A DNA stretch of 63,465 nt, counting the filler, from Sluysia triapertura (taxonomy: Eukaryota), in assembly GCA_046118255.1 (NCBI GenBank). It is 5 parts of 5 records of this genome, joined end to end, with 100 filler letters (N's around TTAATTAATTAA, not from the genome) between each part and the next. Parts side by side here need not be neighbours in the genome. Positions count along the whole stretch, not along the records: positions 1 to 10,787 come from JBJNIA010193471.1; positions 10,888 to 23,541 come from JBJNIA010091788.1; positions 23,642 to 35,181 come from JBJNIA010183513.1; positions 35,282 to 48,663 come from JBJNIA010043351.1; positions 48,764 to 63,465 come from JBJNIA010251530.1. One strand, written 5' to 3'. The notes under the pieces are model-generated. The model saw only the letters and a program-made list of their open reading frames with translations, did no database searches and had not been told where the DNA came from. Both the position numbers and the translations under genes were made by a program. Below are positions 5,389 through 59,650 of this stretch, in pieces; within the stretch, counting starts at the first letter, position 1; each line of letters begins with the position of its first letter.

Positions 5389-5995
5389 TGTGGTGGCCAA
5401 CCTTTTCATTTAAAATTTATTACACATACTTAATATCATTTTTTTTAACATTTAACATTTTACTTTTTCAGATTCATCAAAATCCTTTTACATTTTAAAA
5501 CATTTTAAATCCACAATCTCATAACATTAAAATTATACCTACATTCAAAACCATTAAATGTACATTTCAAATTTTATTTAAAACATTTCAAGTTCACAAT
5601 TGTTAAACATTCATTCATTAACATCATTAAAAAACATTAAATTTACATTTCAAAATCATTTTAAACATTATAATCAAAATGTAACTTCTTACATTTCCAA
5701 TTTTATTAATTCATGTCTCCAAATTCTATTTTTTCCATAACATTCTCTACATTTTCACCATTCCATGAAAGAATATTAATTTGAAGAAATAGTTACACAC
5801 AACTTTTAATTTAAGAAAGGAAGTAATAAATATCTTTATTTTTATGAAAGAGAGCTGTTTCTACAAAAGAAATTTATGTTGTATTGTGTGCTTATGTATT
5901 TTATATTTTACAAAATATAAGATACAAAGAAAGAGAATGTTATGTTTGCTTTATGTGTTTTCAATTCAATCATTTTATCATTATTTGTTACATTT
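5389..5995 (+). mobile_element. TGTGGTGGCCAACC-headed dispersed module (solo-LTR-like), copy A
   Basis: Starts TGTGGTGGCCAACC. G-poor body with ACATTTTAAA-like imperfect repeats. The 3' part (CAAAAGAAATTTATGT...TTATGTGT) is shared with copies at 14791 and 58896. 3' end approximate. Confidence 0.55.
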
Positions 5996-6061
5996 TACTA
6001 TAATTATTAAAAGATTTTATGTAAAGAAGTGATTTATAAAGTTTTTAGAGTTTATGCATTT

Positions 6062-6194
6062 NNNNNNNNNNNNNNNNNNNNNNNNNNNNNNNNNNNNNNN
6101 NNNNNNNNNNNNNNNNNNNNNNNNNNNNNNNNNNNNNNNNNNNNNNNNNNNNNNNNNNNNNNNNNNNNNNNNNNNNNNNNNNNNNNNNNNNNNN
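6062..6194. other. Assembly gap
   Basis: N run. Confidence 0.99.
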
Positions 6195-7050
6195 TTATTA
6201 TATAACTTGTTGTTAGCCGACAGTTTTAATTAAAATTAATGCATATTTAGTTGCTTAGTGTACAACTGCTAACACAGATGAAAATTATTGACTATCCAAT
6301 CATAGCTAATTAGATTTAATTAAAATTTACGATACAGAATAAATTGATTTAAAATGTGTTTCAAAGTTTATAACGAATTATTATATACAAACTTGTATTT
6401 CAAAAAGTATTTTAACAGCAGATTAAAAAATTAGCCTACAAAAATACAACGATCATGCATTTTGCTACTTTAAAAAATATTTATGATATATTTCAATTCT
6501 GATGTTGAACGATTATTCGGATAGTGAATTTGATACTAAGTGCCGATTTTACTAACAATGAAAACAATGATGTTAAATCTATGGCTATTAATTCAAGTCG
6601 AGTCTTAGTCGGACCTTTTATTATAAGTAATTTCATATTGCTATTATACTTTTTATTAATTAAAAATTCAATTATTTGTGTTCTTATCTTTATAAATTCA
6701 TAGTTGCTTATTTTAATTCAATGTATTTATTAAATTTGTAATAAAATATAATTTGAATATTTTGGAGTTTAAGTTTATTGTTAATTTTACGTTAAAATTG
6801 TGACATAAGTCAAGCATGTCTCTTTTATAGTGCAGAAAGTTGAAAATTATTATTGGCAGTATTTTGATTACAGTGTAAACTCATCAACTCTTTAGAAAAA
6901 TCGGAAATCTAACGATTATTATAGTAAGACTTCATAAAGAACTAAAGATAACAGAGTAATACGTTTTTATACGAATATTGTTAATCTTATTCTTACATAG
7001 ACTTAAATATTACATGCACCAGCGTTGGTCGTGATTATTTTTAAGCTATT

Positions 7051-7270
7051 TGTGATGGTCAACCTTCACTATTATTAAATTTTATAAAAATATAATCCTT
7101 TAACACTTTAACATTCACCTATTTATTTTCTCTACATTCACGAAAACAGTTCATTTGCCAGAATCAAGTTATATCCACAATCCATAACATGAAAACCACA
7201 CTAACATCCAATACCATCAATTTACATCAACAGATCCATCAAAATATGTTACTCGACATTCATAATAACG
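7051..7270 (+). mobile_element. TGTGG-module, short copy B
   Basis: TGTGATGGTCAACC head followed by the same C/A-rich, G-poor body. Confidence 0.45.
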
Positions 7271-7332
7271 TTATTGCTATTATTATTGATATTAAAATTC
7301 ATTAATTTATTTAATATCGAAATCAGTATCTA

Positions 7333-7490
7333 CCATCACCAGTACTGTTATTGCTGATTATTGTATATAGATTTATGTCAGTACTGATGGTGGCTAATCA
7401 TTCAATTATTCTATTTTAATTTTACTATTAGTTGTCCAATCAGTGTTACACTGATTATCAAATTTTACAATTTCTGATTGGACAACTAAT
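7333..7490. promoter_or_regulatory. Double inverted-repeat cassette with paired ATTGG-N4-CCAAT-type palindromes
   Basis: IR1 7333-7347/7379-7393 (13/15 match). IR2 is a perfect 16-bp TTAGTTGTCCAATCAG/CTGATTGGACAACTAA at 7428-7443/7474-7489. A homologous cassette lies at 59858-60022. Confidence 0.45.
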
Positions 7491-7726
7491 CAGAACTAGC
7501 TTATGTACAAAAATTTTTAAACAAAAACATTTTTATGTGAGTACAGCAATAACGAATAAAAAAGAAAAGTTGTCAAAAATTGAAAAAGAATTAAAATTAA
7601 CGCCAAACTAAATAAATTCTAATCAAATAAATAAACTAATCAAAATTCTAAAATCGAATTAATTGTATAATTTCGTCAATCAGTAAATGAAATTAAAAAG
7701 CTATTTGGAGCACAATATGATTCTAA

Positions 7727-8880
7727 TTGTCAACATCTGATATCCTAATGAAGTTTTCTTTAGTATCGACTGAAAATAGTAGCAATCTATTTAGTTTATT
7801 AATTAATAACTTATATGTAAAATTCGAATGTGTCAATTTTGAGTGTATAGAACGATGTTATTCAATTCGCGTATGCAATTCAGGATACATAGTTCTAGTT
7901 TTAGAATGAATAAAAGAATTGGATTCAATTTATACATATAGTAATCATTTATTATTTTTCAAAGAACAAGTTCAGTTACTAATAGCGAACGTTTTAACGA
8001 GATATATTATATCTCTCAATGCTCATTTACTCTCAGAGAATACGCTTAAAGAAAAAAGTCAAATGAATAATATGGAAAAATCTATGATTCTCTTAATTGA
8101 TTTTGTGAGAGTCTACGGTTGTAATGATGATGACTGTTCATAGTATACAGCGCAAGATAATGTCTTATTACATGTTGCATATTTATTCAGTCATTTTACA
8201 TCTTTTCATAATGAATCACTAATAGTGTTTTGTGATTATTTACTTTATTATGTGTTGAATGAGAAGGAAGTAATAAATGTTCGTAGTAATTCTGTCCATT
8301 ACTTGGCAAGTTATATCATTCATTTTGACAATGAGCATACATCTATTAAGTTTATATTTAAAGTGATTGATCGAATTTTCACAGGTGTTCTAAAGTTATT
8401 TGATTTTTCAATCTTTTTGATTTACAAGACAAACATCGCTTATAAAAAGTCTAAAAAAGTTAAATTGATTAGAATTGATGATCATGGAAAAGTCCTTTAT
8501 AATGGCTTTATGAACGATGTCACGACTGGTGAATCACATGAGATTTGTTTAGAAATAATATAGATATTATCCAGGCCTGATGCAACAGCTGTCTATGTCT
8601 TGCTGGAGATTTGTTCAATCAAGAACGATAATGAAGATGAACTAAGCGAGCTTGATTGTGTGGATTGCCCACTATTTCATAATCAAAAGGTTACCTCATC
8701 GGCTTTATTAATTTTACTGTGCTCTTATGGTGTTGATATCAATGGCAAGGACAATGTAATTATTTTTTTGTTTATTTTATCTATAATTTAAACTTTCATT
8801 TTATTCTAGATTATGAATCTTTGGCTGAACTGAATTACGTACGCGAGGATATAGCAATAAAACTTAAACCTTTTGTTTTA
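7727..8880 (+). pseudogene. RRN3: RRN3/TIF-IA-like (RNA Pol I initiation factor) pseudogene
   Basis: ORFs 7727, 7919, 8225 and 8600 share one frame broken by three stops. Segments YSNHLLFF..IISLNAHL, MEKSMILLIDFV and HVAYLFSHFTSF...VRSNSVHYLASYII match the order and pattern of RRN3 motifs (YVxNLL..LLKLDV, LDxLM, HVQFxxFYxCSF...RxxAxxYxxSFLAR). Putative 54-nt GT-AG intron at 8756-8809. Confidence 0.55.
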
Positions 8881-9271
8881 ATAAAAAATTAAAAAATTAT
8901 TATAGTTATTAATGCCTCTTTGATTAATTTTATTAAATTGTTGATTATAAACCTACATAAAAATTTTAAACTTGATATTCGTAACGAACTTCTATTTAAT
9001 TATACAAATAAGAATTATATTTAGTAACCTTACCAAATTGGTGTCCTAAATCATACTAAACTATTTAGTATCAGTCGACATAACAGACGATTTTGTCTAT
9101 TATTGTTTAAGTTAAGGTGACTAGTATTTTTTTATACAATTAATCTTAATAATTGTTTTCAGGTAATTTTACAGGTACGCCATTAGTAAGTCGTATACTG
9201 TAAACGGATTCGAATAAGAATAATAATTTATTTTGCTGGTAGTTAAGTTCTTTTATTAAGAAACACCCAGA

Positions 9272-9328
<57 letters not shown>
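9272..9328. repeat. (AAT)n microsatellite
   Basis: Perfect trinucleotide run. Confidence 0.95.
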
Positions 9329-9329
<1 letters not shown>

Positions 9330-9429
9330 TAAATATTGTTACTACAAAATTATTGTAAAAATGAGTAATGACTTATAAAATCAATTAGTCAAAACTTTAT
9401 AACTAGTGGTAATAACTAGTTAATAAATA

Positions 9430-10740
9430 GTGGTTACGACAATTTGTTTTCTGTTAAAGTTATTAATGATATAGATGATTATACTAAAGTTGATGATGAT
9501 TTATATAACAACTATATGCAATTATAAAGTTAAGTTTAGCCTGATCGACATTAGTAAAGATGTTAATGTTCTAATTGTCATTGCTCAAGATGATCAGAAT
9601 AAGGATAATGATGATGATGATGATGATAAATATAACAATTAGCAAATATGTAATTATAAAGTTATTAATTCTAAAGACGATAAGAATAAAATTTGTGATG
9701 ATCACGTCTAAAACTTTAGAGCATATAATTTTGAAGATCAGTATAACGCACGATTGGCATTAGTAGAGATAACAATTTAAAAAATAACAATCTTGAAGAC
9801 GACAAGGTCGAAGTTATTAATGTCGAAGTCGAGTATTGTGATTCTAACAGTCACGACGATAAAGATAACAATGCTGGATATGAGGCTACGCAAATTAGGA
9901 GGAAGAAATATATTGATTATCAAATCAACAACGAAGAAGAACATGATGTTTTATTTAGCTGTTATGAAGACAAATTGTATAAACCTAAACATTACAAAGT
10001 CGATTTCTTTAATATTTATATAAATAATGTGTTTTCGAACTTTATTATTATAAATTAAGTGTAATTAATTTTCTTAATGATAAAAATAATATTTATTCTG
10101 TTGATAAAAATAAACCTACAATTTGTCAAAGGTCAAACATTATTAAAACATTATTACGTCAAAGCCAAATATAATAACAATTATTGATTTTAATTACTAT
10201 GAATATAATAACATTTATTGATTTTAATGATGACTGATTTTATTATTATTGGATTTTTATTTAATGACATTGGATTTTTAAATAATTTTTATTACTGTGA
10301 GTTTATTAATCTTATTAAATTTTATTATTAATTTAATAATTTTATTTTCTTATTAATCTTATTTTGTTATTAATTTATTAATTTTATTCTTAAAATGTTA
10401 AATTTTGTTAATTCATTTTGTTTTAAATAATTAATGAAAGGTACAACAATGACAATGAGTATTTTTGTAATGACTCTCGAAGTAGAGATAATGAGCATGA
10501 TTATTGCATGTTAAATAGTATAGCTGCTATGTGTCCAGCTCTTACTGATAATAATGGTATCTGCTTACTGCGTGGGTTGTACTGCAGATACACTCATTCT
10601 GTTCAAGATTTGAAGAGCAGCAAAGAAAATAAAGCAACTTTCCACTTACACTTGCAACGAATTACAGAGTTGCTGAATAATATTGCAGTTGTTTCCAGCA
10701 TTTCAGGTGGCAATAATTTATTAGACGACGTCAAGATAAG
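9430..10740 (+). pseudogene. Asn/Asp-rich protein with C-terminal CCCH zinc finger, copy 1 (decayed)
   Basis: D/N-rich codons with stops at 9430-10080, homologous to 60203-60950. ORF 10508 contains CPALTDNNGICLLRGLYCRYTHSVQDL = C-x9-C-x6-C-x3-H, a TIS11-like CCCH pattern. Confidence 0.6.
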
Positions 10741-10787
10741 TAATGTTTACTTCTATTCATTGTGTGTTAACAATTATTATTACTGTT

Positions 10788-10887
10788 NNNNNNNNNNNNN
10801 NNNNNNNNNNNNNNNNNNNNNNNNNNNNNNNTTAATTAATTAANNNNNNNNNNNNNNNNNNNNNNNNNNNNNNNNNNNNNNNNNNNN
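10788..10887. other. Assembly gap with artificial TTAATTAATTAA linker
   Basis: 100-bp N-linker-N spacer; identical design at 23542, 35182 and 48664. Confidence 0.97.
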
Positions 10888-10934
10888 GGTTTGACCGAGT
10901 TCATGCAAGGAAAGCCTTAATATTGAGCAAAGTC

Positions 10935-12330
10935 AAATTTTAATTAATTTTTAATTATGGAATGGTTAATTTTTTATACTTAGACTAATGCAAATATGAT
11001 GAATGGAATATGAGATGATTGCTATGAAAGAGGAGAATCTATAATTGAGTTCGAAATGTTTTTAAAATGGTTCGTTTGAGAATAAGAGCCTTAAAACATT
11101 TTTCATTAGAAAATTTGGTGTAACAAATAGAAACTTAATTAAATAATATAAAGTGAAATTAAATAGTATTGCTGATTGTTATTTTAATGTGAGAAATAAT
11201 TTAAGTAAAAATAGATTGAGTAGAGTAAAAGGAAATGACGCCTAATAATAAATCAGATTTCTATGTTTTGTACTTAATGTAGTTTGACAGACCGTACCAT
11301 GTAATTTTCAAAGTTGTAGTCGGTCTGATTCTCAAAGAGGTTAGGATGATTTATGTGAGAGAGTGTTTGATTATGAGACTTGGAATTGATTGGATGACGA
11401 AAGAGTATAAAATAAAGATTTCTAAATTTTTAACAGACAATAACAAGATAACAACAATGACAATGATGATGATAGATATGAAAATCCATACATAGAGTAA
11501 AGTGATTAATTTTTATTCATTTATTATTTTTTTAAAATAATATAAATAATTAATCTTATTTTAATTTGAATAATTTTAATATTGTGTCATTTTTAGTTAA
11601 TTTTTAAGCTGTTTTTAAGAAACTCCCTACACAATTTTTGTTAAAATTATATTTGATTTTCAGCCATTGTTAAGATAATTTTGTAAGAGACTCCCCACGC
11701 AATTTTTGTTAAGATTATATTTGATTTTTAGTTATTTAAAGTAATTAATTAAGAACCAGTTTACGTAATTTTTGTTGAGGATTATATTTAAATTGTATTT
11801 GATTTTCAGCTATTTTTAAGGTGAATTGAATAGAAACTCCCTACGCAATTTATTCTATCAAAATATTAAGTATTTTATCTCTAGAAATTACTGTTTAAGC
11901 TATTCTTACCAAATTATTTTATTGTAGTCGTAATAATTCTTTGTTACGTTGACCAAAATATTTAGATAACATAATTACCATTAATTTTCTAGATATTGAT
12001 ATTGTTAGTGTCTGTTGCGTCACTCCTGGTTGTTTCGTCTTAATTAGATTGTAATATCCTTGATTATATTATAAACGCTATTTTTATTTTTGTTGTTCTC
12101 AGTATTTAGTAAAGATTCTTATTGATAATAAATTATATAACGATTTTTTGTTTAATAGTACATAACTGTCTTAGTTTTGATTTAATTTTCAAGAACTCAA
12201 ATTTGGAGTAATCGTTATTAATATTATAAAAGAAGATTACTAAAAATTATACTTGATACATTGACTATTTAAATTATTAAGGTTCATTTAAGCTAATCAA
12301 GTTAATATTGAGTTGTAATAACTAATAATT
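10935..12330 (-). repeat. ~1.3-kb dispersed repeat, inverted copy of 62290-63465
   Basis: e.g. TAATGCAAATATGATGAATGGAATATGA at ~10986 is the reverse complement of sequence at ~63390-63417; similarity is colinear along the block. Confidence 0.85.
11618..11860 (+). repeat. Imperfect ~70-bp tandem repeat, about 4 units
   Basis: Recurrent ACTCCC(T/C)AC(A/G)CAATTTTTGTTAA(A/G)ATTATATTTGATTTT at ~11621, 11690, 11756 and 11836. Confidence 0.7.
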
Positions 12331-14790
12331 TTAATGATAAAACTTATAAAATTTCAGTTTTCCACTCAACACAAGCCTGTTTAAGGTCTTGTATGAAAAA
12401 TTAAATAATTTTATTCTTCTTAAGATGAATAGATAAACCCTATAAAATAAAAATTACTTGAGCATGGAGCACAAAAAGTTCTTCAAAAGTATTTTCGCCA
12501 AAAAATTTTACAACTAAAAACTTCTGTTTGAACTAAAAAAATTGCCTAAATATATACTGAATTTTGCAAAGCCATTTTGAAAATACTTACTAATGGTTAA
12601 ATTAAACAATTTTCTTTCTTCAAATTAATTTCTTAACATAAAAATTTTTTCTTAATAAAAACATTAAATGTATTAAATATTAAAATATTAAAAGTTAACT
12701 TTTAAAAATTTAATAAAGTATTTACATTTAAAATTTATTTAGAATATTAGGATTTATATTTTTTAAATATTAAACTTTATTTTAAATTAAAATTTATTTT
12801 ACTTAAAATTTATTATAATAAAAATAATCATTTATACACAAAAAATATTATACAAATTATACAAGAATATAAATTATTTTATATAAAAATATACATAAAA
12901 ATAAACTCTGACATCTAGAACAGTACCGAATTAATGATTTTTATGTCAGACTGAGTTATATAACGTGCTGCATAAACTGGTTCTGTCCATTTAAACTGTA
13001 TAATGTACGACGTGAAAAGATTCAAGTGGAAAAATTAATAAACTGGCTATGTGGTCAACAAATCTTCGAATAAATATTAAGATTTATAAGTAAAACTCTT
13101 CTTTGTGAGTACTTATGTGAATGAGTCTTCTTTATGTACTTTTCTCTTGGCATCCAGTGTACAGTAAATTTAGTAAACTAAATTTAATAAGTTCAGTTTA
13201 ATGCATTTTCAATTTTTTTTGCAATTAATTTAAGGCACTTCCTGTCTGATTTTAATTTTATTTATTTATTTTATAATTTGTTTAATAGTACTTTCCGTCT
13301 AGGTAAAGTTATTTTAACCATTTGTTTATTTTTAATTAATATTGTTTTTTAATTAATTTTTTAATTGATTATCTTTTTAATTGCAGGAGATTTCAGATAA
13401 TATACTAATTCAATTAATGAATGATAATTTTGATGAAATTTAGCAACCTTACAAAAATATTATTCCTGCGTGTTTATTAACTAGATCCAAATTATGCACA
13501 ATTATGGCAATTAATATTTAATACAAGGTCTTGTTGTATTGAGAATGTATCCGCAAGAAAATGGCCATATATGAGGAAGAACATAGTTTTCTAAACGAAT
13601 TAGAGCAAGTTTAAAATAGGAATTAAGATTGTGTTAAGATGATTAATTAAGATGATTGAGGCATAGTGCTAGATCGCCTCTGAAGATGGTAACATAGACT
13701 ATGTTCTTGTTGAGATTAACTGTTTTCTTTACGATTGCATTTTTCTGAATTAAGATCCAAGATTATTTATATGTAAGTATCGACAAATAACGTATTAAAA
13801 TTGTCTTTAAAACTTATTTGGAACGGGACTTTAAAATTTAATGTTAAGTTAATTTACACAATATTTTATGAAATCCCAATTATGATTGTTAACTTGTTTA
13901 CGTTTAAGTACGACTGTGTAACATTTGAATTTTATTGCAACTCTTATGGTCTTTATCATGCGTATATTTAATTATTTGTGAGATTTTAATTTATTTCTAT
14001 GAATTTTAACAAAGCACTACATTTTATAATTCGAACTAATTAGGGAACAATGTGATCCCTAAACATATATTTACAAGTAATAATAAAAAGACGTACGATT
14101 GTTATTCATAAAGTTATAAAATATGAATAAAGTGGCTTTATAATAATATGCAATCAGAATATGAGACTTACAAAAATGATTTTGTTATTATATAAAAAGG
14201 AATTGAATTATGACAATAAATGTTAGCTAGAAATTCAATTTTTATTGAAACAGTGTTTGCTGAAGCAATTTAGATATTGCTCCTATGTTTTAGAGTAATA
14301 TGATTCAGCCATAACTATCTTATTAAGTTAGATTGAACGGTTTAAGCAATGATTAGGTTTCCAACTATGATCTGATGTATTTGTCCTTTTGTTATTTAAA
14401 TACTGGTTAATTACTAATAATAATTCGAATAAAAATCTAGAATTTCAAAAAGATTTTTCTTCGATTGAATCCACACGTGAGGATATAGATTGATGCATTA
14501 TATAGTTGCTTAAATACCTTGGATTAACAAGTATTTTTTATCTTAGAATTTCTAATAATGTTTTTATGTTGCTCTGTCTAACTGGGTCAAAATCTAGTAG
14601 AAACTTAATCGAGTGTTGGTAGTAACATTTCTGTTTAAGGTGTTTTTTTAGTAATCCCAATTTTACATTCTAGTATCTTTTCAACATTTATATAAAAACT
14701 TTTTTCTTTAAACGTTAACTCGTTAGGTTTTGTCAAGTTGTAAATTTTATGTTTTATTTTTATGTCAATTTAATTGTAAAATTTATTTTA

Positions 14791-15650
14791 TATGGTGGCC
14801 AACCCAATAATTTGAAATTTTACATCAATAAAATTAACAATCACTCTTTAGAATATTTCATAATTGCTATTACCTTCAAACATTTTAAACATAAAATTTC
14901 ATAACATCAAAATCATATTCGACATCGAAAGTCATCAAATATATACTTAAAAATCTATTTAAAACATTTTTAAATTTAATTCAACATAGCGCACATTCCA
15001 TAATATTCTAACTATTTTTCCATGAAAAAACTTTTTCATATTTTATTCCTTTCAGAACCACTAAAACTAAACATTTTAAATTTACAACCCTACTACACCA
15101 AAACCACATCTACATTCAAAACCATTAATGCACATTAAATTTTATTCAAAACATTTTAAATTCACAAGTTTTCAACATCCAAACTTTACCTTCAGTCAAA
15201 ACCATCAATATATATTTAAAAATTCATTTAAAACATTTTATTCATTATTTCATAAAATCAGAATTACAATTTACATCTTAAATCATCAATATATTTAAAA
15301 ATTTATTTAAAACAATTTTATTAGAATCTCAATTTACACCTTAAATTTGAAAACATATATCTTAGAATTGACTCAAAACATTTCCAGTGCTCAATTCATT
15401 CACACTCAATCATTTACACCTTTTAATCGTTTTTAGTATTTTTGAGTCAACAAATTCCACCTTTTCTAAATTCATTTATCTATATGTTAAGGATGAGAAT
15501 CAAATATAATAAAGATCATGTTTATTATATTAAGAAAGATTTATGTGTCTAATTTTTCGTCATTACATCATTATTATTTTATTTATTTATTATTATTATT
15601 TTTCATGCTATTATTATTTTTAATTTCTCATTATTACTAACAACAATTTT
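14791..15650 (+). mobile_element. TGTGG-module, copy C
   Basis: TATGGTGGCCAACC head, ACATTTTAAA-rich body, shared 3' AAAGATTTATGTGT segment. Confidence 0.55.
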
Positions 15651-15767
15651 AATTTATTTTCTGTCAAGTTTTACGTTTCTGAATTATTTGCTGCTAAAAC
15701 TGCATGGTGACAGGCATGCATCTGAAATATAATACACACTAATTTGGATAATTTTACAGAACAATTA

Positions 15768-15832
15768 ATTGGGCGTCCAATCAAAGCTAATTCTCCATAA
15801 TTATTGTGATCTATGAGGATTGGGTGTCCAAT
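15768..15832. promoter_or_regulatory. Paired ATTGG-N4-CCAAT palindromes
   Basis: ATTGGGCGTCCAAT (15768) and ATTGGGTGTCCAAT (15819), 51 bp apart, upstream of a decayed ORF at 16056. Confidence 0.45.
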
Positions 15833-16055
15833 CAAGATAGACAACAGCAAATTAAAAATAGTTGCAATTTTAGTGTTACGAGGCACAAATTAAAAAATTA
15901 AAAATTTAATTAGAAAACAATTTTGATTCTTATATTCACGTCACTATGTAATATCCAGTTATCGTATTATTAGTGAATCCGGTAATGCACACTATTTTTA
16001 TGATCCATGAATTTCAACAATAGGCATACAAAAAACATTTAGTTCTCCATTATAA

Positions 16056-16600
16056 ATGTCGTTCAAATATTTTATTAGAAATATAGTACTCGATTTTCAA
16101 ATAATAAAATTTAGTTATGTTATGTATTCTGTTAACGGCAAGCAAATAAAAGATAGTAGATTCGAAGATGGATGTTATGTAATTCCATATTTTAAAGACC
16201 AGAATTATTCAATAAATAATTTTGCTAACCCTAGGTTACTTATAAATAAAAAATTAGTTCTAGCTAGTATGTCTCATAAATTACACGTTGCATTGTTATA
16301 ACCTTGTATTGTTGAAGGTTATAAACCTTTTGAATAATGAAATTAATTAAATCTATGTTAGATTAGTTCAAGTACAAAATATTAGTACAAAAAGTTTAAC
16401 TGCACCATTATACCCATCTCAATTAAAAGAAGTCACTACGATTAGTAAAAACGATAAAAAAAAGTCATAATTTTAGGTCTAAATCAAGCCTATGTATTTA
16501 ATTACAAAATGCTAAAGCAAGATAAAAGTGCTGATAGATTAATAACAACAATTGATGATCAAATTACAATAATACCTATTAATGTATTTGTGGAAATTTT
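16056..16600 (+). pseudogene. Decayed coding sequence of unknown family
   Basis: 81-aa ORF with codon-like continuation through stops; truncated by the repeat starting at 16639. Confidence 0.25.
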
Positions 16601-17497: not shown

Positions 17498-19104
17498 AAT
17501 TCCCCCTTTATATACAATCAACAAGAAATCAATTTAAACAATATTTTTATTTTGTTTTAATAATAATAATTTTTTAAATATTTATTTATATTTTATGTTT
17601 TAATAATAATAGAAAAATTTTTTAAATATTTTTAATAAAATATTTTAATAAAATTTTTTAATAAAATATTTTTAAAATATATATATATATTTTAATATAA
17701 TAATTGTAAAAAATATAAATATATAATAATTTGATATTATTTATTTAAGATAAAAAACTAAAAATACTAATAAACATACTAAAAATTAAAAATTCTAAAA
17801 ATGCCTTTACAAAGCAAAGAGTTTATAAAAGAGATATAAAAGTTTCATTAGAAGATATAAGAATGGCATTATCTATGTACAAATCTAAGAAATATATGTC
17901 GCATATAACAAATAATATGGAACACATGGTCTTACTTCCAGAAACGCGTAAATTTGAAGCTAACAGCTTCAAAATTATTTGACAGGCTTAGCCATAGCAC
18001 TTATAACTAAATAGATCATGCGAAGAAAAATAACTGGAATATTTTTGTTAATTGCTTTAGATGACATAGGAAAATATTCACAAAAAAGGTTAAATGTAAG
18101 AAAACAGAAACCCCAACTGTATACGAATTTTCTTGCGCACTTAAGTGTTTAGTGGCAAGAGCAGAAACTTCTAGAAGAAAGAAAGAAAATAACTTTAAAA
18201 GATAAATTCAAAAGTGGATTACGCCCTGAAATAAGGATTTATGTAAGTTTAATAGATAATTAATCTTTTAAAGAAATAGTTAAAAAATTAAGAAGTATGG
18301 AAAGATCAGGTATTGAAGAAAACGATAATATAAGTTATATAAGTAATAATATTAATATAAATACTAGTAATTTAAAAGAAGAATCATATAAGAATAAAAG
18401 TTTCGAAGAAATTATTAGCCTTCAGGAAATAATTATACAGGTTATAGAAATAACATAAACAATTTCGGCTCAAGAAGTAAATACAACAAGAGGATTTGAA
18501 AGAAATTATCTAAGCAACGAGAGTTCGAACAAAGACCATTGACCAGATGGCCAAAAGCCAAGATAATAATTTTACAAAAAGAAGTAAAAGCCTTGGTAGA
18601 AACAACAATAATGAAGGAACTAGTAAATCTAAGGTTCAGACAAACATAAAGGAAGAAGTAATTTGTCACAATCGAGCAACTAATATCTAATACTTTTACT
18701 TGAGAATTAAATAAGATACAACCACTGAAACACGGCTACGGTAAGAAAAGTAAGATTCGATAAGGGAAATGATAAGGATAGTAATGATTCTTATAATTAT
18801 AATTAAATTATAATTACTACAATATGTAAGACAAAAGAAGACAAGTTTCGATGAAGATTACGAAGAGAGCGAATAAGGAAAGGTTCTAGGTAGTCTAACA
18901 GAAGAAGAAGTAAGAGTATTACAGGAGTTCCAAAGAATGAAGGTAGACAATGATGATTGGGAGGAAAGAAAAGATAAGTCAAAAAGAAAGAACGAAGAAG
19001 AAAATGAAACGTTTATAAATTATCTGTACGATTATTTTCTAAAATTTTTGAAGAGAAGACAGGAAAAGAAAAATACGAGTTTGAGATTAAAAAAAGGGAT
19101 ATAC

Positions 19105-19263
19105 TGTTGGGGTAAAAAAAAGCCTAAGGTGCCATTTGGTAAAATTGACAATAATAAAATAAAACTGTTAGACGGAGCTAATAGCTTAGTGGTAGAGCAT
19201 TCGAACTGCGCAGCGAAGGTCCCGGGTTCGATCCCCGGTCAGTCCATTTTATGAAGTCTAACA
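19105..19263 (+). mobile_element. 159-bp tRNA-containing element (solo-LTR/TRIM-like), copy 1
   Basis: TGTT...AACA termini; ATAC target-site duplication (19101-19104/19264-19267); same length and layout as 25811-25969. Confidence 0.85.
19175..19246 (+). tRNA. tRNA-like Pol III unit (Ala-like consensus, 8-nt anticodon loop), probably element-borne pseudo-tRNA
   Basis: A box TAGCTTAGTGG, B box GGTTCGATCC, D and T stems pair, loop ACTGCGCA, followed by TTTT. Mismatches in the acceptor and anticodon stems. Confidence 0.7.
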
Positions 19264-20142
19264 ATACTTGAAATAGAAAAATATAGAAAAAGAATAGACG
19301 TATGGGATAGATGTGAAAACAAATAAAGATGTAATATTGGAAAATAACCAGGAAAATGATTCAAAAGGGAACGAGGAAGAAATACCTGAAGAAGAAATAT
19401 CTGAGAAAATGTATTTATTTGAAGAATAAACAAGCTTAAGTGAGGATGAAAAAAAGATGACACTAATGAAATAGACTCTGAAATCTTAAGCGAAATCCAA
19501 TAACAATCTTAGTTAATGAAGAAAGAGAACGAAACACTCCAGAATCAAAGGATAAATAAGGAAGTACAAATGTTTCTTACAGACTTACGAAGAGGTATAG
19601 AAGAAGCAAAGAATATAGATAAGAATATAGACGAGTTACTTATTTGAGAGATGACAAAGTAATTTAGTAATTTTATGTCTAGAAGATAGTCCATATAAGA
19701 TAAAAACTCGAAAATTATTAAAGTAAATTTTGCTAAATAGAAAGAATGGAATATCCTAAGGCTTTAATGGGAATTAATGTAACAATCAATGAATCAATAA
19801 ACGTTTTTATGGAGTTTCCGGAGACTACATTGGTAGAAGAAGTTATCGACGTCATTAAGGTGAATGACGCATCAATAATAAATGTGAAATTTATTACCAG
19901 ACGAATACTTAAATTATTATGGTTGTCCTTTAGGAAAGCACAACTATATATTAAAAGTTTTCATTGAATATGCAATCCAAAATAAACCTATATGTGGAGG
20001 GATTTGTCTTTTTTAAGTTTAAAAAATTATTAAAAACATTAAAATTTTCAATTAATGATGAACAATTTAAACAAATCATCGAAACAATTAACAAAATAGG
20101 CTTAAGACCTTTTAAAAACAATTTTGAAAATAAACCAAGATT

Positions 20143-20609: not shown

Positions 20610-21136
20610 GAGAAATTATCAATGTTATTAAATGTTAATACACATAATTAACCACTTAACAGTCGGATTTTTTTGAGAAAATTGGTAAAAAACTGTCACT
20701 CTTTTATTTTTATGTTGTGTCTTTTATACTTTTTATTTCGCAAATTACAAATCAAAACCCAACAATTGAACAACTTCAGAATCTCGATATATTTTTTGAA
20801 TAATCAAAAATTACAATTTAAAAAATAATAATTATTCTTTATGACAACAACAATATAAAATACTCTCTAAAACAAAATACAAACTCTCTTTATATAAAAA
20901 TTTTAAATTACTCTCTATAACCACGTAAATTACTCTTTAAAAACAAATTAAAAAGCCAGGGGTGACACAACTTAAATCCTTGCTCCCGATATTAATGCAA
21001 AATACACTCAATACAAAATAGATAACTAACCCTAATCCACCTCGAGTCATGCACAAGCTAAACTATTACTTAAAATTTTTATATAAGTTTAGGATTTATT
21101 ATATATATTTTTTATTTTTAGTTAAAACAATTAGCA

Positions 21137-21442: not shown

Positions 21443-21683
21443 TGGATAAGACCTCCCCCTAACTTCTCGTCAGGTTTATCCAAATCACAAAGACACAACA
21501 GACGAAGGCGTCAATTAAAACATTTTATAAAGAAAAAGAAGCAAATATGTCTAAAGCTCCGAAACCTATTAATCCCTTTTTAAAGAGAAAACATTAGCTC
21601 TTCCTAACTTATTTTATTATGTTATATTATTATATGATTTTAAATATTGACAAAAAATAGCCTACTTATTTAAATTATTTTTC

Positions 21684-27226: not shown

Positions 27227-27227
<1 letters not shown>

Positions 27228-43731: not shown

Positions 43732-43819
43732 AGATCAGGTTTATTTTGAAAATGTTAATATACATGATTTCAAAACAGTAGCTATATTAGGAATCGGAGG
43801 ATTTGGAAGAGTAGAATTA
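43732..43819 (+). CDS. Isolated exon of a cGMP-dependent protein kinase (PKG)-type kinase, subdomain I
   Basis: TTTAG acceptor and GTTAGT donor flank DQVYFENVNIHDFKTVAILGIGGFGRVEL; LGxGGFGRVEL is the PKG Gly-rich loop signature. Confidence 0.65.
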
Positions 43820-45139: not shown

Positions 45140-47187
45140 CACTAAACGTACCAACATTTCATGTATGCCTATATTCATACAATCACCAGTCATTTTGGGT
45201 TAATTCAATATAAATTTACTCTATTAGAGACACATTAAACAAAGTAACTTTATTGTAGTAATTAAACAAAAAGATACAAATATGTAATATATTCAAATAC
45301 GATATTATAGTAATTATTGATTTTGGCATTTTATAGGAAACAATAGGAAATTCAAATGTACATTTTCCACAAACGTATTTTTCACATTTACAACATTTTT
45401 GAAGTTTTACAATATCTTATTTGTAAAGCTTTTCGCGAATTAGAACTTTCCGTTGTTTCTTTTTCGCATTTACTGTTATTAATTCTTTTTCTCTTGTTTT
45501 TCGATAATCAGTACCAAGTTATTGAGCTATCTGAAGTAAAAAATTCTTGACAGGAAATGTTTTCTTTAGTTGTTTCTTTATTACAGCTAAATCAAGAATA
45601 TTGAAAAAAATTTGACTTCGATTTTCTCGACATTTGACTCGTCATATCTATGCCAAACTTAGACCGGTTGTAAAATAAAATTGCTTCTGGTAAACTTTTA
45701 TTGTTCTTTTCGACTTTTACATAATTGTGCTCACTACTACTTTTACTTTTATAAACTGTGAGATTATAGTTTTCTGACTTGAAATTTTAGTTGAAAGTAG
45801 TTTCATGTCATCTTGTTTATTCCTTACAAATCTGAGCAACTCCATTTTATTTGAGCGGATTGTTCCAACAAGTGTAGTTTTTTTCAAGTAGTTAATTAGC
45901 TAATGTTCTTCCATATCCCAAATATGGTTACATGAATTTTAGCACTTTATACTCAGATAATGGCGTTGAAGCAGGTCTGGTTTCATCAATAGCCTAAATA
46001 TGAAAGGGAATTTATAACAAATTTACTCTAATTATCTGATGTCAACCAAAAATTGATTCTAAATTTATCTAGTTTATTTGTCATCTTCCATAATTTTTTT
46101 CACCAGGTTTATAGCAGTTTTGGGTGTTCTCAATGAATTTATTCTACACTTCAGAAATCACTGTAAATTTGTCATTTTACTGTTTTTTATTAAATCTGAC
46201 AATTTGAGTAAAACTCATTGTTTCTCCGAAAAATTTGGGACCCCATGTTGCATTCCATGTTGTTTGCTTCATATGCGCCTCTTGCATATAAAAGTGCAAT
46301 AAATGCATCTCATTTTTATCGAAATAAGCTCCATTCGATAAGCTTCATCAATTATATATTCCTTAATGTGTTCCATTACATGGTTGACAATAATCAACGA
46401 AAATGCCTGCATTTTCTTTGAATATTTGGATAAAAATTTATTCTTCCAGGTTGACCACCTATTTCTATTTCTTTCCATCAGTTCCCAAATTCTGATAATT
46501 TTCTTCAGAACTTGAAAACAATCTCATTCGTTTACGACTTTTTCATGTCTTCAAAACGTTTTCTTTTCCATCATCAGTATCAGTGAACTCATAATTACTG
46601 TCCAATAAGTTGTTACTGCCAGATAATATATTTTCATTTTCAGGGAATTCATCTAATTTTTTTCTAAGTTCTTCAGTTGATCTGATTGTTTGAACAGTTT
46701 GGAAAACAAAACCAATATAATGACAATTTTTTTCTAATGTTTATTTAGTTATTATAAAATTACTTTCTTGCTAAATTGAAAGTGAAAAAATGATATTGAT
46801 ACCTGTATATTGTTTTTGAGATGTTGACACTTTGAACTACTCAGAACACGTAAAATATATTGAATGGTGAAAAAAACGAAACCATCAAAAAATTAAACTA
46901 TATAAACATTTGTAAGGTAAACTATACTCAAATGTTAAACGAAAGAAAACAAAAATTGACATAAACCAAGTTTTTAAATGAGTACTATTGTAAGTTTTGT
47001 GAATGAGTACTACCGATCAAATGACCGGTCATGGCACATAAAGGATAGATTACCTGTATTCATTAGATTTATTGTAATATAATCTTTTAATAATGTAAAT
47101 TTGTTTGTTTATATATAAAATTAAAAGTCATTCTAAAATGTTATCTTTTTAAAGTAAATACTAAAAACGGTCGTGGTACGTTTAGTG
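45140..47187 (-). mobile_element. Complete but decayed piggyBac element
   Basis: TTAA on both sides (45136-45139, 47188-47191); perfect 14-bp TIR CACTAAACGTACCA; minus-strand transposase motifs DKFRINFWL...YLG and TTLVGTIRSNK. Confidence 0.9.
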
Positions 47188-48574: not shown

Positions 48575-48663
48575 TTTAATAATAATATAATAATAATATA
48601 TTAATTTATATGGCGCTCATATCTACCGCGAAAGTACTCAAAAGCGCTTATGGTATATCATTC
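48575..48663 (-). mobile_element. Non-LTR retroposon 3' end (family of 27042)
   Basis: Minus strand AGCGCTTTTGAGTACTT...GATATGAGCGCCATATAAATTA plus a TTA-rich tail. Confidence 0.55.
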
Positions 48664-48763: not shown

Positions 48764-49152
48764 TTTCTTTGTCTGAGGTAGTGTTAATATTGTTGTGTGG
48801 TATTGGTGTATTTGTGATTTACATGTTATGTGTTTTGGTTGTGGTTTGTTTGATAAAATAACTTTTGAGTAAGTGTTATACATTATTCTGGATTAATTAT
48901 CAAAGTGTGATATGAAGTGAATGATTGAAGGTGTTAGACGAATTGTTGGTATATACGTATTGTTGAAATATTATAAATGTCGAATGTTGTTTGTGATGAT
49001 TAGTAAATGTAATTCAATAGTCTGAAGTGAGATGGATTTAAATATTATGTTTTTTGTAAGTAAGTTGTTGTGATTTGCTGATGTTGAGCATGATTGTGAT
49101 TTGGGTGTTATTAAGTTTTGAAGAATTTTGATTTATGGGTGTTGGCCATAAA
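48764..49152 (-). mobile_element. TGTGG-module-like copy (diverged)
   Basis: Minus strand TATGGCCAACACC head followed by a G-poor, C/A-rich body. Confidence 0.35.
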
Positions 49153-50978
49153 AACATCATCATATCTGATGATTGCATATATCTGTTCATGACGACAAAG
49201 ATAGTGATATTGATGATGCTAATAATGATTAAAATGTTGTTATCAGCATCATCATCATTATTATTATTGCACATGTATTTCTCTTAATATTAATATTAAT
49301 GTTTCGGGCTACATCTTTTAATCTTTCATTTAAATTAAATAAACCGTAATATTTTTATGCATGGCACAATTTTCCAATAAATAATCCAATTCAAAATGAA
49401 TAAAATAAATGAAATAAACATTAAACATAAAATAAATATTCCAATAATAAATATTGAATTCATTTTCAAATAAACGAAAGAAAATGAATTTATGTTCAAA
49501 TAATTGATTTATTTACCTATTAACTAAAATTAGGAAATTAGATTGAATATTCGATTTCGTGATTTTCAATCATAGCTAGATCACAATGTTACAGATTCAC
49601 ATACAAAACAATGTAATTTAAAAGTTGTAAAAATTATTATTATATTTAAATATTAAATATAATAATTATTATTTTAATATACAGTCATATCTCGATTTAA
49701 TACCAACTTTATATATTGCCACCAATCAATATTTTTATTATTGCCAAAAAATAAAATTAAATAATATTAAAATTAATTATATAATTAATTATATAATAAA
49801 CTGTACTAATACATAAAATAATTCATTTAATTCAAGATTAATGATTATAGTATCTATTTTTGCACCGAATACACATTTGTATTTAGAATGGCTGATTGGT
49901 TTATGTAACTATAAATATGTAAATAAAAATACAAATTAACTATGATAATTGCTATTATTTACAATAAGTTTTTAAATTTAATATAATATTATAATATTAA
50001 TATATTAAATTTTGTTTTTTAGTAATATAATTTAAGTATAGTATGTTGATGTGGATATAATAAAGTGTGTCGAGAAAAGGTTCTTAGATCAAGGAAAATT
50101 TGAGTTATAGGCTAACTGTGGATATTTAGAAAATATATCTGAAATAATGGAATCATATGTAGCAACTGATACTACATTTTTAGATAAATTAAGTGAGATA
50201 ACATCTCATTTATGAAACTTTAAAAGATTGCAAAAATATTTTTACTATTATGAGTTATGTCATAAACTTTATTGAATCATATTCTTAGTGGAAGTCATTT
50301 GAAACTTGTACAAAAATTTAATTTTAGAAATTTCTTTATAATCAATTTTTGACTGAAGTTAAAAATTACGTGCCACCATAGAATCATAATCACATATTTC
50401 ATAGGCCCATTTCTATTATTGTATGTGACAAATTCGTTGAAAAATATTCTAGATTTTAAAGGTTCAGAAGACGGCTAAACGTGCCAGAAATTTCTTTCAA
50501 TTTCCTTAACCTTTTCTACATCACCCATAAATGATTTTAATATTTTAATATTTAAGCTAATTTGAATTTTAATGACGAATAACAAAAAATAACTAATTTT
50601 ATATATTAGTTTCATAAAAATCCAGTAGTATCAGATACTTACTGAAATGTTCTATAAACGGGATTGCGCACTCTATCAAAATTTTAATCGTGCACATAAC
50701 CTATAGCACTTTGCTTAACAGCTACCATAATATTTATGGTATTCGTTTTGGACAAATAGAATAACATTGCACAAAGATTACCTTCATATGAAAGAAGGAA
50801 AATTTGATGCGACTTTAAGAAATGCATATTTTCTGAATTACGAATATCGAAGTCACAGCAAAAACAATTTACATCAGTTATTTGTAAGAGTATTAACAAA
50901 GATTGGAAAAAATGGAAAAAAACTATAACGATTATTGTGATATTGATAATGGTGGTGGTATGATTAATGACAATGATG

Positions 50979-51129: not shown

Positions 51130-51399
51130 CTACATAAAGTAAAATTAATATATCTTAGTAATTTAATTAATATTATTTAATTTAAAGCCAAAGTTCTTTA
51201 TAAATTAGAATATTGTGATAAATGATTTATTATTAACACTGAAATAATTTAGAGTAAATATTAGTATTACCTAAATTAATTATCAAAAAATTTAATTAAT
51301 TATATTAGAACTACATAAACTCATGTTCCTTAATAATTTTATGATAACTTTAAAGAATTATCTTAAAGATTTGGAAACTTATTGATAATAAAATGATTG

Positions 51400-51629
51400 T
51401 AAATAGATTGTAAGAATTATAGTCCAGACTCACCATAAAGTAAATAAGGTTTACATTAGTAGTAATTTTAGATGAATGACGATGAATATAGCATGATATT
51501 GAAATGTGTAGAATGAATAGGTGAAAGAAGTGTTTGTTTAAAATTGTAGATGATTTAAATTGAGTGACTTAAAATATTTTAATTTCGGATTGTATTAATG
51601 AAATTATGAGTTTAGTTTGAGCTACCACA
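51400..51629 (-). mobile_element. TGTGG-module-like copy
   Basis: Minus strand TGTGGTAGCTCAAACTAAACTCATAA; CTCAAACTAAACT is shared with the copy at 56411. Confidence 0.4.
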
Positions 51630-56148: not shown

Positions 56149-56357
56149 CCAATTCTTGTTTGTGTACCATGACCGGTCAAATGACCGTTTTTAGTTTTTA
56201 CTCTTACAATAATATGAAATCGTATTGTTTTGAATAATGACTTTTAATTTTATATATAATCAAATAAATTTACATTATTAAAAAAATTATTTTATAATAA
56301 ATCTGATGACCAGTGATGATATGAATAGGTATGCATCAAACCTTGGTACATTCAGTG
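56149..56357 (+). mobile_element. piggyBac-derived MITE (deletion derivative of the 45140-47187 family)
   Basis: Joins sequence homologous to both ends of the full element; ends TGGTACATTCAGTG-TTAA; TTAA at 56145-56148. Confidence 0.75.
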
Positions 56358-56410
56358 TTAATTAGTTGTTTTGCATTTGAGTCGATTAGATTCACTTTGC
56401 ATGTTTACAT

Positions 56411-56580
56411 TGTGGTGGTTCAACCTTTTACTAAAAATTGCATTAGAAATTACAACACCAAAACCTCATAATTTACACTGCACAACTCAAACTAAACTTA
56501 TAAAATTTAAACAGTTTAAGATATAAAATTTATAAATCTTAAAATAATTTTTAAAGACAACAAAAAATTTTATAATGCAA
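56411..56580 (+). mobile_element. TGTGG-module, short copy D
   Basis: TGTGGTGGTTCAACC head with C/A-rich body. Confidence 0.45.
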
Positions 56581-56746
56581 TTTTTGTATAAATACTTTCT
56601 TTCTCCTGTGTCACGCAATTATGCTTTATTAAACTTTTGTATTCTAAAAACGAGCATTCAAAATTTAGTTACCATAGTGGAAATAATAGTTAAGATGAAT
56701 AGCTAATCAATCAACACATATTTATTATCATATTTAAGAAAATGAA

Positions 56747-57037
56747 ATGAAACTGTTGTTAGAAGTGAAGAAAGGTTGGAAAATTGTTAATGAAGCAGAT
56801 GGCGCTTGTATGTTTGGAAAAGAAGACGAGCACAAACTCATTCGAGATCAATTTATAAATTACGTGAAACAAAATAGAGAACAATTTTCACAATTTATAT
56901 CAGAATTATACAACCGTCCGGTAGAAATTTATTACAATTCATTGGATCCTATTAATGTCTTTTATCCCAAGTGCAATTATTTACTTTCAATTCGATTAAG
57001 TTACCTAGGAATACCGAATTATCCGAAATTAAATTAA
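56747..57037 (+). pseudogene. OTUD5: OTUD5/DUBA-like OTU deubiquitinase, internally deleted copy
   Basis: KKGWKI..ADGACMF, EHKLIR....Y...N...FSQFI, SELYNRPVEIYYNSLDPINVF, IRLSY and LGIPNY follow OTUD5 ([39 protein letters not shown]; LGLP) with three segments missing, including the catalytic His motif. Confidence 0.8.
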
Positions 57038-58895
57038 TTGAAAAGAATTAGAAATACATGAAATTGAAAAGAATATATCACAGGATGAGCTGAAATGTAG
57101 TAAATCAATTGATATAGAAGAAATTGCTCTATAATCAACATAATAATAATGACAATAGTAATTACAGTTTTAAGATTATAAATAACTAATTATCAGCATA
57201 TAGTAATAACAAATATTTCAAAAACATATTTAAAAGTTAAATTAAAACTGCATAAAAATAAAAAAATGTTTCCTCCAAGATTTTTTTCAACAAGCAAAAT
57301 CATTTGTTGATTTGATAAATACATTTAATGTTCTTTCGAAGTGAAAATTTATTAAAACAATACACGAAATACTTTTTCATTATGGCAAGAATTTATGCAA
57401 GGTAAAACCGAAGGAAATTTCGTAATGCTGTCTTTCTATTTTTAAAACTAGAATTATAAAGCTTTACTTCATGTTATTTTGAAATGTTTGATTTTAGTAA
57501 AAATCAAAATATTATAATCAATATTAATATAATATATACAAATGTTTAACAAATATGGCTAAAAAACAATAATTTAAAAATTTATCGCAAAACAAAATGA
57601 ATTTAGACCAAACCGATGTTTCTAAAGAGAATGCAGAAGAAACTGTATTAACAGAATTTTATCTTTTTGTTGAAGTAAATAAATTAATTGACTAATTAGA
57701 TAGAGTTGTTGAATATCAAAATACTGATAACAACATCACTCACTAGATTCACATTTAGAGGTTTTACTTAAAAATTATATTTAGCTTGTTGGTAAAACCA
57801 ATAAAATAAATAGAAAGACAGTTTTATTTTTCCGTTTATATCATATATCAAAAAAGATACAAAAATACATAAAGTTAATACTTCACGAAGTTTCCAATTT
57901 AGAGCTAGTACTTAATGTACATAAAGAGAATTGACAAGCTCGATAAGTTTTATTGTGGTTAATAATAGTTTCTTTAATGCTATTTGATATGAAATTATTT
58001 GATACACCAGAAAAAATTCCAAGTTTGTAGAGATTGTTGTCTCAATGATTGCAAAGTTTCATAGTCGACCTGATACAACCGAACAATTTGTTATGAGCAG
58101 CATTACAGTGTATAATTTTATGTGCGATTTGCTTAGTTCAGTTTCTTGTCTCTTTAAAACTAGCAAAAGAGAATATATTTTACCTTACAGTATTCTAGCA
58201 TTTGAAACAGATAAAGAAATTTCATCCTGCCCGTTAAGGATTAACTTGTAAAACGCAAAGACTTTATAATTTTAAAAATGGAGATTAAATCGTGGAAATA
58301 TCAAGGAAAAATTGAAAGAGTTTCGAAGACAATTGTAGGCAATTACATTTGTTCGTTTTTTTAAATTATTTGTTTTATGTATTATGATAAAATTTTTTAA
58401 CTCTTACTTTTATTGGATAATTTGCCAATTAAAATCTTGTATTATTTTCTTTAGACTCAAATCAAAGTTTATTAATAATTAGAGTTTAATTTAAAACTAA
58501 GTAATTGCATGTTGAATAAACGCTACTTAATATACTAAAAATCATATTTCGAAATTCCTGTGAAAGTTACATAATTATGTAAGGTTACACATGATGGAAT
58601 AATAATTAATCAAACATTCGATAAACCAATATGTAATTTTCTTCTATTCAATTAATTTTTATTGAATTTAATTTGATGAATAATACAAACTTTGGATTAA
58701 TAAAATCACAATACAAAAAAACTTATTTTTACCAAGGACAAATCAAGTTTCATTTACTCAGCCTTTTTACATCTACTAGCGACATTAAATCGTTTTTAAC
58801 TTACAACAATACACACTTCACACAAAATACACAAATATTAGGATTACAAAAATTTAAATCATTCTTATAAATTTCATTAAATAGTAATTGGATGG

Positions 58896-59650
58896 TGTGG
58901 TGGCCAACCTATTTCCATAAAAAGTTTTATAAAAAATTACATAAACTTTCGCTAACCTAATAATCATTCTCAAAATCTACAAATTCCACCCAAAATCAAC
59001 ATGAAACAATAATAAATAAAATCAACATATTCTACATAAAACCATACTCTTAAACATTTTAACATTCTCATATTTATCTCTTTTACATCCACTAAAAACA
59101 TCCCTTTTAAATAAATTTTACTCAACACAACGTTTACTTCCAAAATCTACAGCCTTATAACAAATAAACTACGGAGACTTTCAGTACCATCAAATTACAT
59201 TAAAAAGTTCATCTAAAATATTTTATTTTTCATTTCTTACAATTCAAGCACAATCAAATTCGAAATTAATCAACAGACATCTTCAAAACAATCCAAACAT
59301 TCTAAACTCACGATCTTGTACCATTAAATCCTAATATTCAAACATTACCTTCACTCAAAAACATTAATCAGCATCCAAAAGTTATTGTTAACATATACAC
59401 CTTAATACATTATTTCAATTAGAACATTAAGGTGTGTACTAACATCTAAATAACATCTAGTCTTCACAAATCATCAAATACATTAATTTTTTATAGATTT
59501 AAATATGTTGAGAATATTTTTAAGATTACAAAAGAAAGTTTATGTTTAATTCACAAGACAAAGACTTTATGTGTTTTTAGGATAATAATAATAACATTTT
59601 CGTTATTATTATTATCACCATTTTTTTTATCTTCATCTTTATCATTACAT
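58896..59650 (+). mobile_element. TGTGG-module, copy E
   Basis: TGTGGTGGCCAACC head; 3' CAAAAGAAAGTTTATGT...TTATGTGT shared with copies A and C. Confidence 0.55.

Follow-up and report, generated by a model that had tools for sequence, protein, structure and literature searches.

Introduction

Capture of host genes by terminal repeats is already known in the long terminal repeat (LTR), Helentron and Penelope classes of mobile elements. Here, we describe a gene-linked repeat, referred to as the module, found in a 63,465-nucleotide stretch of DNA from Sluysia triapertura (assembly GCA_046118255.1; hereafter the window), where it stands directly ahead of decayed, sense-oriented fragments of mutually unrelated housekeeping-type host genes (cargos). 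It proved to be a real repeat that can now be defined better than before, and we compared it with four described systems. In LTR-mediated retroposition of metazoans (Tan et al. 2016, PMC5131818), partial sense copies of host genes are fused to a repeat, with tandem cargos and multi-gene chimeras that lack a poly(A) tract and target-site duplications (TSDs) of the L1 type, as is the case for the module. In that system, the copy has an LTR on either side and no longer contains introns, whereas we found neither a matched 3' repeat nor a polypurine tract, and several cargos carry intron-like segments.

The pseudo-LTR (pLTR) mobilisation by Penelope elements of Adineta vaga (PMC3846280) and the Terminons (PMC6431247) are reported to involve intron-containing host genes moved by terminal repeats, partial tandems and N-rich coding stretches, all of which have a counterpart here, but no hammerhead core, TSD or Penelope open reading frame (ORF) was found with the module, which is up to 1.2 kb long and holds tandem units. 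Non-autonomous Helentrons of the HINE/DINE-1 type, defined by an 11–13-bp pair of subterminal inverted repeats (subTIRs) with a nearby inverted repeat (PMC4067079, PMC7492417), share with the module central tandem repeats, a microsatellite, inverted repeats, the lack of a TSD and a link to gene duplicates. The module differs from them in that no subTIR pair could be demonstrated and no terminal stem-loop clearly exceeds background, and by a longer spacing of its inverted repeats and a strict sense fusion to the cargo. Finally, planarian genomes are reported to be rich in Gypsy elements (see also PMC11410931 and PMC8532177), including the giant Burro elements (PMC6431247); judged by that description, Burro has the planarian host group, tandem repeats and host-like domains in common with the module and differs by its paired LTRs enclosing a gag-env-pol polyprotein, none of which was found in the window. 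In the literature outside Repbase, subscription papers and supplements, we found no description of the module or of retrocopy capture in planarians, and the module may already be a catalogued repeat.

Module copies and left boundary

The window consists of five pieces with identical linkers (N44-TTAATTAATTAA-N44 at 10788, 23542, 35182 and 48664) and contains two further plain gaps. As the pieces were joined artificially, adjacency across linkers is meaningless; every module–cargo pair named below falls inside a single piece. All statistics are drawn from this one window, in which the GC content per kb ranges from 17 to 41% and is mostly about 24%.

Searching the window with the 14-nt head of the module returned four matches with at most two mismatches, against 0.02 expected: those at 5389 and 58896 are exact, the one at 14791 has one mismatch and the one at 7051 two. 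When the bodies were scored with the head removed, using z-scores against local-composition shuffles, 6/6 pairs of these copies were homologous (z 3.0–14.5), and BLAST aligned the 5389 copy to the 14791 copy with 77% identity over 180 nt and to the 7051 copy with 68% over 187 nt. The sequence-only reading that preceded this analysis had listed about seven copies sharing both head and body, which is too high. The heads at 56411 (+), 51629 (−) and 49153 (−) carry three mismatches over 12 nt, a level that 19 further, unrelated sites also reach (26 sites in total). The body at 51629 scored z 3.7 and 3.2 against two of the four solid copies, that at 49153 z 1.8–2.8, and that at 56411 z −1.0 to 1.0. 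We consequently count four solid copies, one probable copy (51130–51629, minus strand, interrupted by a gap), one doubtful copy (48764–49153, minus strand, with a partial head and a G-poor body, any cargo being cut off by the linker) and, at 56411, a likeness of the head only. The latter (56411–56660, plus strand, a head and short G-poor body without hairpins) is related to a further leader, likewise TG-headed and G-poor, at 20713–21136 (+; z 4.1, 0/100 shuffles), which is not related to the solid copies and precedes a RING ORF (21137) and two long ORFs. Within this segment (20713–23077, +), the two long ORFs are C-rich, have 270 and 209 codons and belong to no known family; the atlas gave a weak DEDDh exonuclease lead here (0.75).

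The solid copies start with TG in three of four cases, the 14791 copy having TA. Upstream of the seven heads, no common sequence was seen over 300 nt (0/21 pairs above z 3.5, best 2.1), from which we conclude that the head is the true left end of the module. The strand-biased, G-poor body reported earlier is real, the four solid bodies having 4–12 G vs 41–56 C over their first 250 nt, but it is not diagnostic, because a stretch upstream of an intact TCF gene is likewise G-poor (18 G vs 58 C) without module homology. A third TG-headed G-poor stretch (2557–3318, +), not homologous to the module, lies about 490 nt before a galactosyltransferase-like relic (Pfam E 0.078). Outside the window, the head gave 2 matches in viral and 87 in metagenome contigs, none with a G-poor body, unit or hairpin block, and we regard them as chance matches.

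Three exons (28452–34600) match a dugesiid HMG-box protein with 49–80% identity, and the closest relatives of the OTUD5 relic described below include a cestode protein; on these grounds, the host looks like a planarian-type flatworm resembling dugesiid planarians. The exons are the N-terminal ones of the apparently intact TCF/LEF-type HMG-box gene mentioned above (plus strand), the remainder of which would lie past the linker at 35182.

Internal layout and hairpins

From left to right, the module consists of the TG head, tandem G-poor units of 80–83 bp, a tract rich in ATT/AAT and two inverted repeats. The three complete copies measure about 0.49, 1.11 and 1.18 kb, so that the module is longer than first described. 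All four solid copies are on the plus strand. The most complete one (58896–60075) holds the head, G-poor units, (AAT)12 at 59746, hairpin 1 at 59858–59919 and hairpin 2 at 59956–60021, while the short copy (7051–7535) has the head, a single G-poor unit, hairpin 1 at about 7333–7394 and hairpin 2 at 7427–7490 with perfect 17-bp arms. The copy at 14791–15900 comprises the head, units of about 80 bp (14875–15320), an ATT-rich tract and hairpin 2 (15769–15835). In the copy at 5389–6302, the head (5389–5402) and 83-bp G-poor units (5494–5669) are followed by an assembly gap (6062–6194), a decayed hairpin 1 (about 6210–6275) and the first arm only of hairpin 2 (about 6287–6302), and its hairpin block is weakly homologous to the others (z 0.8, 2.2 and −0.3).

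Three of the window's seven GC-containing inverted repeats are found in module spacers, as are all window hits of the hairpin 2 arm motif (5/5). The hairpin block is homologous between the 7051 and 58896 copies (z 12.8) and between the 14791 and 58896 copies (z 7.5), the remaining pairs being weak. Across the three complete copies, 95.6% of the hairpin 2 cells are paired and 5/15 pairs changed on both sides, a level reached by 4/500 shuffles for these three sequences. Folding z-scores ranged from −6.6 to +0.7 over eight hairpin regions and were not significant for the 5389 copy and for hairpin 1 of the 14791 copy. The symmetry may reflect a role of the RNA or paired DNA binding sites. The kept pairing of hairpin 2, together with a ratio of non-synonymous to synonymous substitution (dN/dS) of 0.30 between two cargos (see below), argues that the copies derive from lineages under past constraint. 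The module matched neither H/ACA RNA nor any other Rfam family, and the leaders between module and start codon gave a best z of 2.7 among 21 pairs, which was not accepted as homology. Protein-coding readings of the module (C-G-G-Q-P for the head, or zinc-finger repeats) were rejected, as the units are 80–83 bp long and contain stops.

Helitrons start with TC and end with a hairpin followed by CTRR. A CTAG is located 5–10 nt past hairpin 2 in 2/3 copies, which would suit a rolling-circle (Helitron- or Helentron-like) capture at the DNA level, where a non-autonomous element was read past its terminator and carried along intron-bearing flanking host DNA. However, the heads start with TG rather than TC, and module homology extends about 45 nt beyond the CTAG. 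Tandem repeats, a microsatellite and inverted repeats resemble the layout described for HINE/DINE-1 elements (PMC4067079, PMC7492417), DINE-1 being also linked there to gene duplicates, and the missing TSD agrees with this origin, but the hairpin arms are 33–40 nt apart vs 1–22 nt in HINEs, the head and the hairpin 2 arm share part of a motif without covariation and form no subTIR pair, and none of the short stem-loops next to several heads clearly exceeds background (fraction 0.04–0.54). Four intron-like segments in the cargos and a Helitron-helicase-like relic recognized by eye (24074–24450, +; without Pfam hit) count in favour of rolling-circle capture; the uniform sense orientation of the cargos and an apparently processed OTUD5 copy count against it, and overall we consider it unlikely. 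A terminal inverted repeat (TIR) element with cargo, of the Pack-MULE or Ginger type, found no support, as no reverse-complement head closes any plus-strand unit within its piece; minus-strand head hits inside the units are only the head's own palindrome and hairpin 2.

Cargos and their association with the module

All cargos are in sense orientation relative to the module. Behind the 7051 copy lies a 5'-truncated RRN3 relic (7727–8892, +) of 354 codons in a single frame with 3 stops, followed by a 54-nt GT-AG segment (8756–8809) and a short exon-like piece. Its identity is supported by Pfam (E 1.4e-4, short of the curated cut-off) and by the atlas (0.91, 184 shared features), and its first codon maps to about position 184 of the 558-position model if collinear; a word search found no homologue, PDB gave no match, the representatives search with a poorly chosen 77-residue piece returned only an unrelated repeat protein, and for the 3' third there is a competing, weak match to ankyrin (E 0.16). 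Downstream of RRN3, after an (AAT)19 tract, follows a first N/D-rich CCCH relic (9455–10787, +), which has no start and is cut by the linker gap. The second such relic (60203–61420, +), behind the 58896 copy, begins at an ATG and contains 111–120-bp coding repeats and a 61-nt GT-AG segment (61311–61371). Both are UNK-like (E 6e-6 and 0.0025 for the first and second, short of the cut-off), and their CCCH domains show a dN/dS of 0.30 over 69 codons, suggesting that they come from lineages under selection and not from one freshly dead copy.

The head at 56411 is followed by an OTUD5 relic (56676–57140, +; PDB E 2.5e-9) starting mid-gene, at about residue 160 of 495, in which no intron was seen. 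Three internal deletions remove 8, 26 and 20 codons without shifting the frame; the second is flanked by a tripeptide that is repeated in the relative. The RRN3-, OTUD5- and N/D-rich CCCH-like identities proposed by the sequence-only reading thus stand, while its unknown ORF at 16056 is a TRAPPC4 relic starting near 15947 (15947–16300, +), which runs from the N-terminus in one frame without intron, with residues 3–120 collinear (E 6e-9). Behind the 5389 copy, decayed coding-like DNA (6303–7021, +) with a 77-nt GT-AG segment (6627–6703) is GNAT acetyltransferase-like before and cytochrome b5 reductase 4-like after this segment; each match has a PDB E of 0.027 among ten PDB searches, so that either may be chance, and Pfam gave no support. 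A cytochrome-b5 reading of 6265–6561 was not supported, as the search returned the acetyltransferase instead. Downstream of the probable copy at 51629, a two-exon-like relic (50330–50866, −) with an 86-nt GT-AG segment (50642–50557) had no match in PDB, Pfam or NCBIfam.

When four heads were placed at random, the observed 3/4 with a relic within 1.4 kb gave p 0.001 for six supported relics, two of which had been found by searching behind heads; restricted to the four relics found blindly, 2/4 solid heads had a relic (p 0.011). The blind Pfam scan took in 254 of the window's 366 ORFs. Where a relic behind a head has database support, it is in sense to that head (5/5 cases). The association could also be a coincidence, an abundant ordinary repeat such as a solo LTR lying in pseudogene-dense DNA. 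Relics and G-poor TG-headed stretches are indeed common in the window (2557, 20713, 62287), relics were sought harder behind modules, a single window was analysed, and the blind-relic test reached only p 0.011–0.018. On the other hand, each of the four solid copies is followed, about 50–200 nt past the module end, by sense coding-like DNA, and of the four longest low-stop frames two come after solid modules (the other two after the 20713 leader), which makes coincidence improbable. As tested in this window, the pattern of a module preceding gene relics holds and has gained in strength through the naming of TRAPPC4, the twin hairpins, the left boundary and the association beyond random expectation.

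The OTUD5 and RRN3 relics start mid-gene, about 270 nt after the head and about 190 nt after the module end, respectively, and the roughly 150–180 codons missing from them cannot fit into the little room between module and relic. This bears on whether the module is a repeat-derived promoter shared by real housekeeping genes, the relics being segmental duplicates that include it. Hairpin 2 carries CCAAT-like boxes, TRAPPC4 and the second CCCH relic begin at start codons, and the dN/dS of the CCCH pair is consistent with such a role; set against this, OTUD5 and RRN3 lack N-termini and the intact TCF gene has no module, and we hold a shared promoter to be very unlikely. The related suggestion that an LTR family targets genes or supplies their promoters likewise lacks support, since the mid-gene starts fit fusion rather than insertion at a promoter and no LTR pairing or polypurine tract was found.

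Introns and the copying route

GT-AG segments of 54, 61, 77 and 86 nt are present in four cargos, among them those at 8756–8809 and 61311–61371, and that of the CCCH gene is conserved between both relics. The OTUD5 relic, in turn, runs intron-free across two presumed exon boundaries, as placed by gaps in two related gene models rather than by the parental gene, and long single frames occur in TRAPPC4 (113 codons) and RRN3 (about 340 codons). Since Penelope repeats reportedly move genes with introns via RNA (PMC3846280), retained introns do not exclude an RNA route. With this precedent and the intron-free OTUD5 relic, the earlier argument that remaining introns imply DNA-level copies is not established.

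The same precedent raises the question of whether the module is the terminal pseudo-LTR of a Penelope-like retroelement able to move genes with introns in trans and to form head-to-tail partial tandems. Penelope repeats are described as framing intron-containing host genes, with 5' palindromes, partial tandems, microhomology deletions and N-rich coding stretches (PMC3846280). The window offers tandem module–cargo–module runs, a head that is nearly palindromic, introns still present in cargos and an N/D-rich ORF, with no polypurine tract and, but for one candidate, no primer-binding site. Arguing against this origin, no hammerhead was found at Rfam E ≤ 5 and no CTGAnGA core on either strand of four modules (decay could erase it), no reverse transcriptase or GIY-YIG relic was present among the 254/366 ORFs scanned, the flanking repeats are not matched pairs, and there is no TSD. 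We rate a Penelope-like origin as rather unlikely.

Other features of the window

A separate repeat of at least 1.2 kb, with internal tandem units, occurs in two opposite copies that are 76–81% identical (10937–12337 and 62294–63465), the latter with an LTR-like start near 62287. Two tRNA-derived SINE-like (short interspersed element) copies of about 170 bp (19101–19266 and 25807–25972, +) scored 38 and 37 bits with the Rfam tRNA model, without a tRNA call by ARAGORN; one ends in (AAT)n. A short repeat present three times (27134–27227, 33603–33692, 48577–48648) terminates in (ATT)n, which recalls the 3' tail of non-LTR elements. At 17750–19960 (+), decayed frames resembling gag and protease were seen by eye, without Pfam hit. 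Likewise by eye and without Pfam support, a Helitron helicase end, B-family polymerase and piggyBac-type transposase relics were noted at 24074–24450 (+), 36600–37500, 38400–39100 (−) and 45200–46600 (−). The segments 47015–47172, 45135–45193 and 56160–56362 are common ends of an element that we take, from its motif, to be piggyBac-like, and one of them stops about 50 nt before the 56411 head. A GC-richer multi-exon gene or relic without Pfam match occupies 1–1690 (−; pieces 199–450, 686–1012 and 1460–1690), and a lone exon-like piece at 43738–43822 (+) resembles by eye the glycine loop of cGMP-dependent protein kinase, without Pfam hit.

Discussion

A gene-capturing unit, as the sequence-only reading had proposed as one of two options, is the best reading of the pattern. 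We tentatively favour the explanation that the terminal and leader module of a retroelement captured sense host RNA and that the copies then decayed, which is at present the most likely origin given the sharp TG start, the sense orientation, the mid-gene starts, the tandem cargos behind one module (RRN3, then the first CCCH relic), and the missing TSD and poly(A) tract (no poly(A) run at the places scanned). Wide divergence and age would then mark the family, of retroelement type, to which the module contributes the 5' terminal repeat and the leader, with the twin CCAAT-box hairpins probably acting as promoter or packaging signals. Through read-through or template switching, RNA driven by the module would have been linked to host transcripts of sense orientation that had undergone full or partial splicing; an autonomous partner may have reverse-transcribed the chimera, which was inserted and decayed, in a process akin to LTR-mediated retroposition. 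The continuity of the OTUD5 relic across two presumed exon boundaries and the wealth of Gypsy elements in planarian genomes are in keeping with this explanation. The N/D-rich CCCH gene may be a long-term passenger of the family.

Several observations weigh against this explanation. No matched 3' repeat was found: tandem neighbours are no closer to each other than distant copies (5389–7051 z 6.6, 5389–14791 z 14.5, 56411–58896 z −0.3), which speaks against LTR pairing, although gaps may hide some repeats. There is no polypurine tract, purine runs being 1–6 nt long in the 20 nt before the seven heads. TSDs were missing too, as the earlier reading had reported, with direct repeats of 4–8 nt at the seven heads (null fraction 0.16–0.97) and the right end of the module not fixed. 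That reading had also failed to find a primer-binding site; in one of five regions scanned, a CA-then-TGG candidate lies outside the cargo start and coding sequence (60113, in the 58896 copy). This candidate is presumably tRNA-Val-like; the other three solid copies have none. The intron-like segments in four cargos are not predicted by an LTR model, no reverse transcriptase or integrase was detected in the Pfam-scanned ORFs, and a gag-like stretch (18000–18300) was seen by eye alone, without Pfam hit. The hairpin covariation rests on three sequences, and intron loss in the cargos is presumptive. The head had also been considered as a primer site for tRNA-Ile, and this was rejected, as no conserved LTR lies upstream. 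We have not filed the module under the LTR, Helentron, Penelope or TIR class; the copies are old, and decay may hide class marks.

A bolder, rather improbable variant of RNA capture is a high-copy planarian family whose sole cis signal is the TG-headed twin-hairpin module, lacking primer site, purine tract, hammerhead and TIR, with a different gene fragment in nearly every copy, an undescribed route of capture and the N/D-rich CCCH gene as passenger. If it were true, thousands of chimeric gene copies would be expected in the genome. If the window is typical, its four solid copies and five supported cargos within 63 kb would point to a single repeat family that has duplicated fragments of host genes en masse in a flatworm. 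Duplication on such a scale is known mainly from plant Helitrons and Pack-MULEs. In planarians, it would mean inflated gene-family counts in genome annotation and raw material for new genes, and it would provide a test case for RNA-based elements that move partly spliced genes. Should the module instead belong to an ordinary LTR-retrocopy system, it would extend a known mechanism to flatworms.

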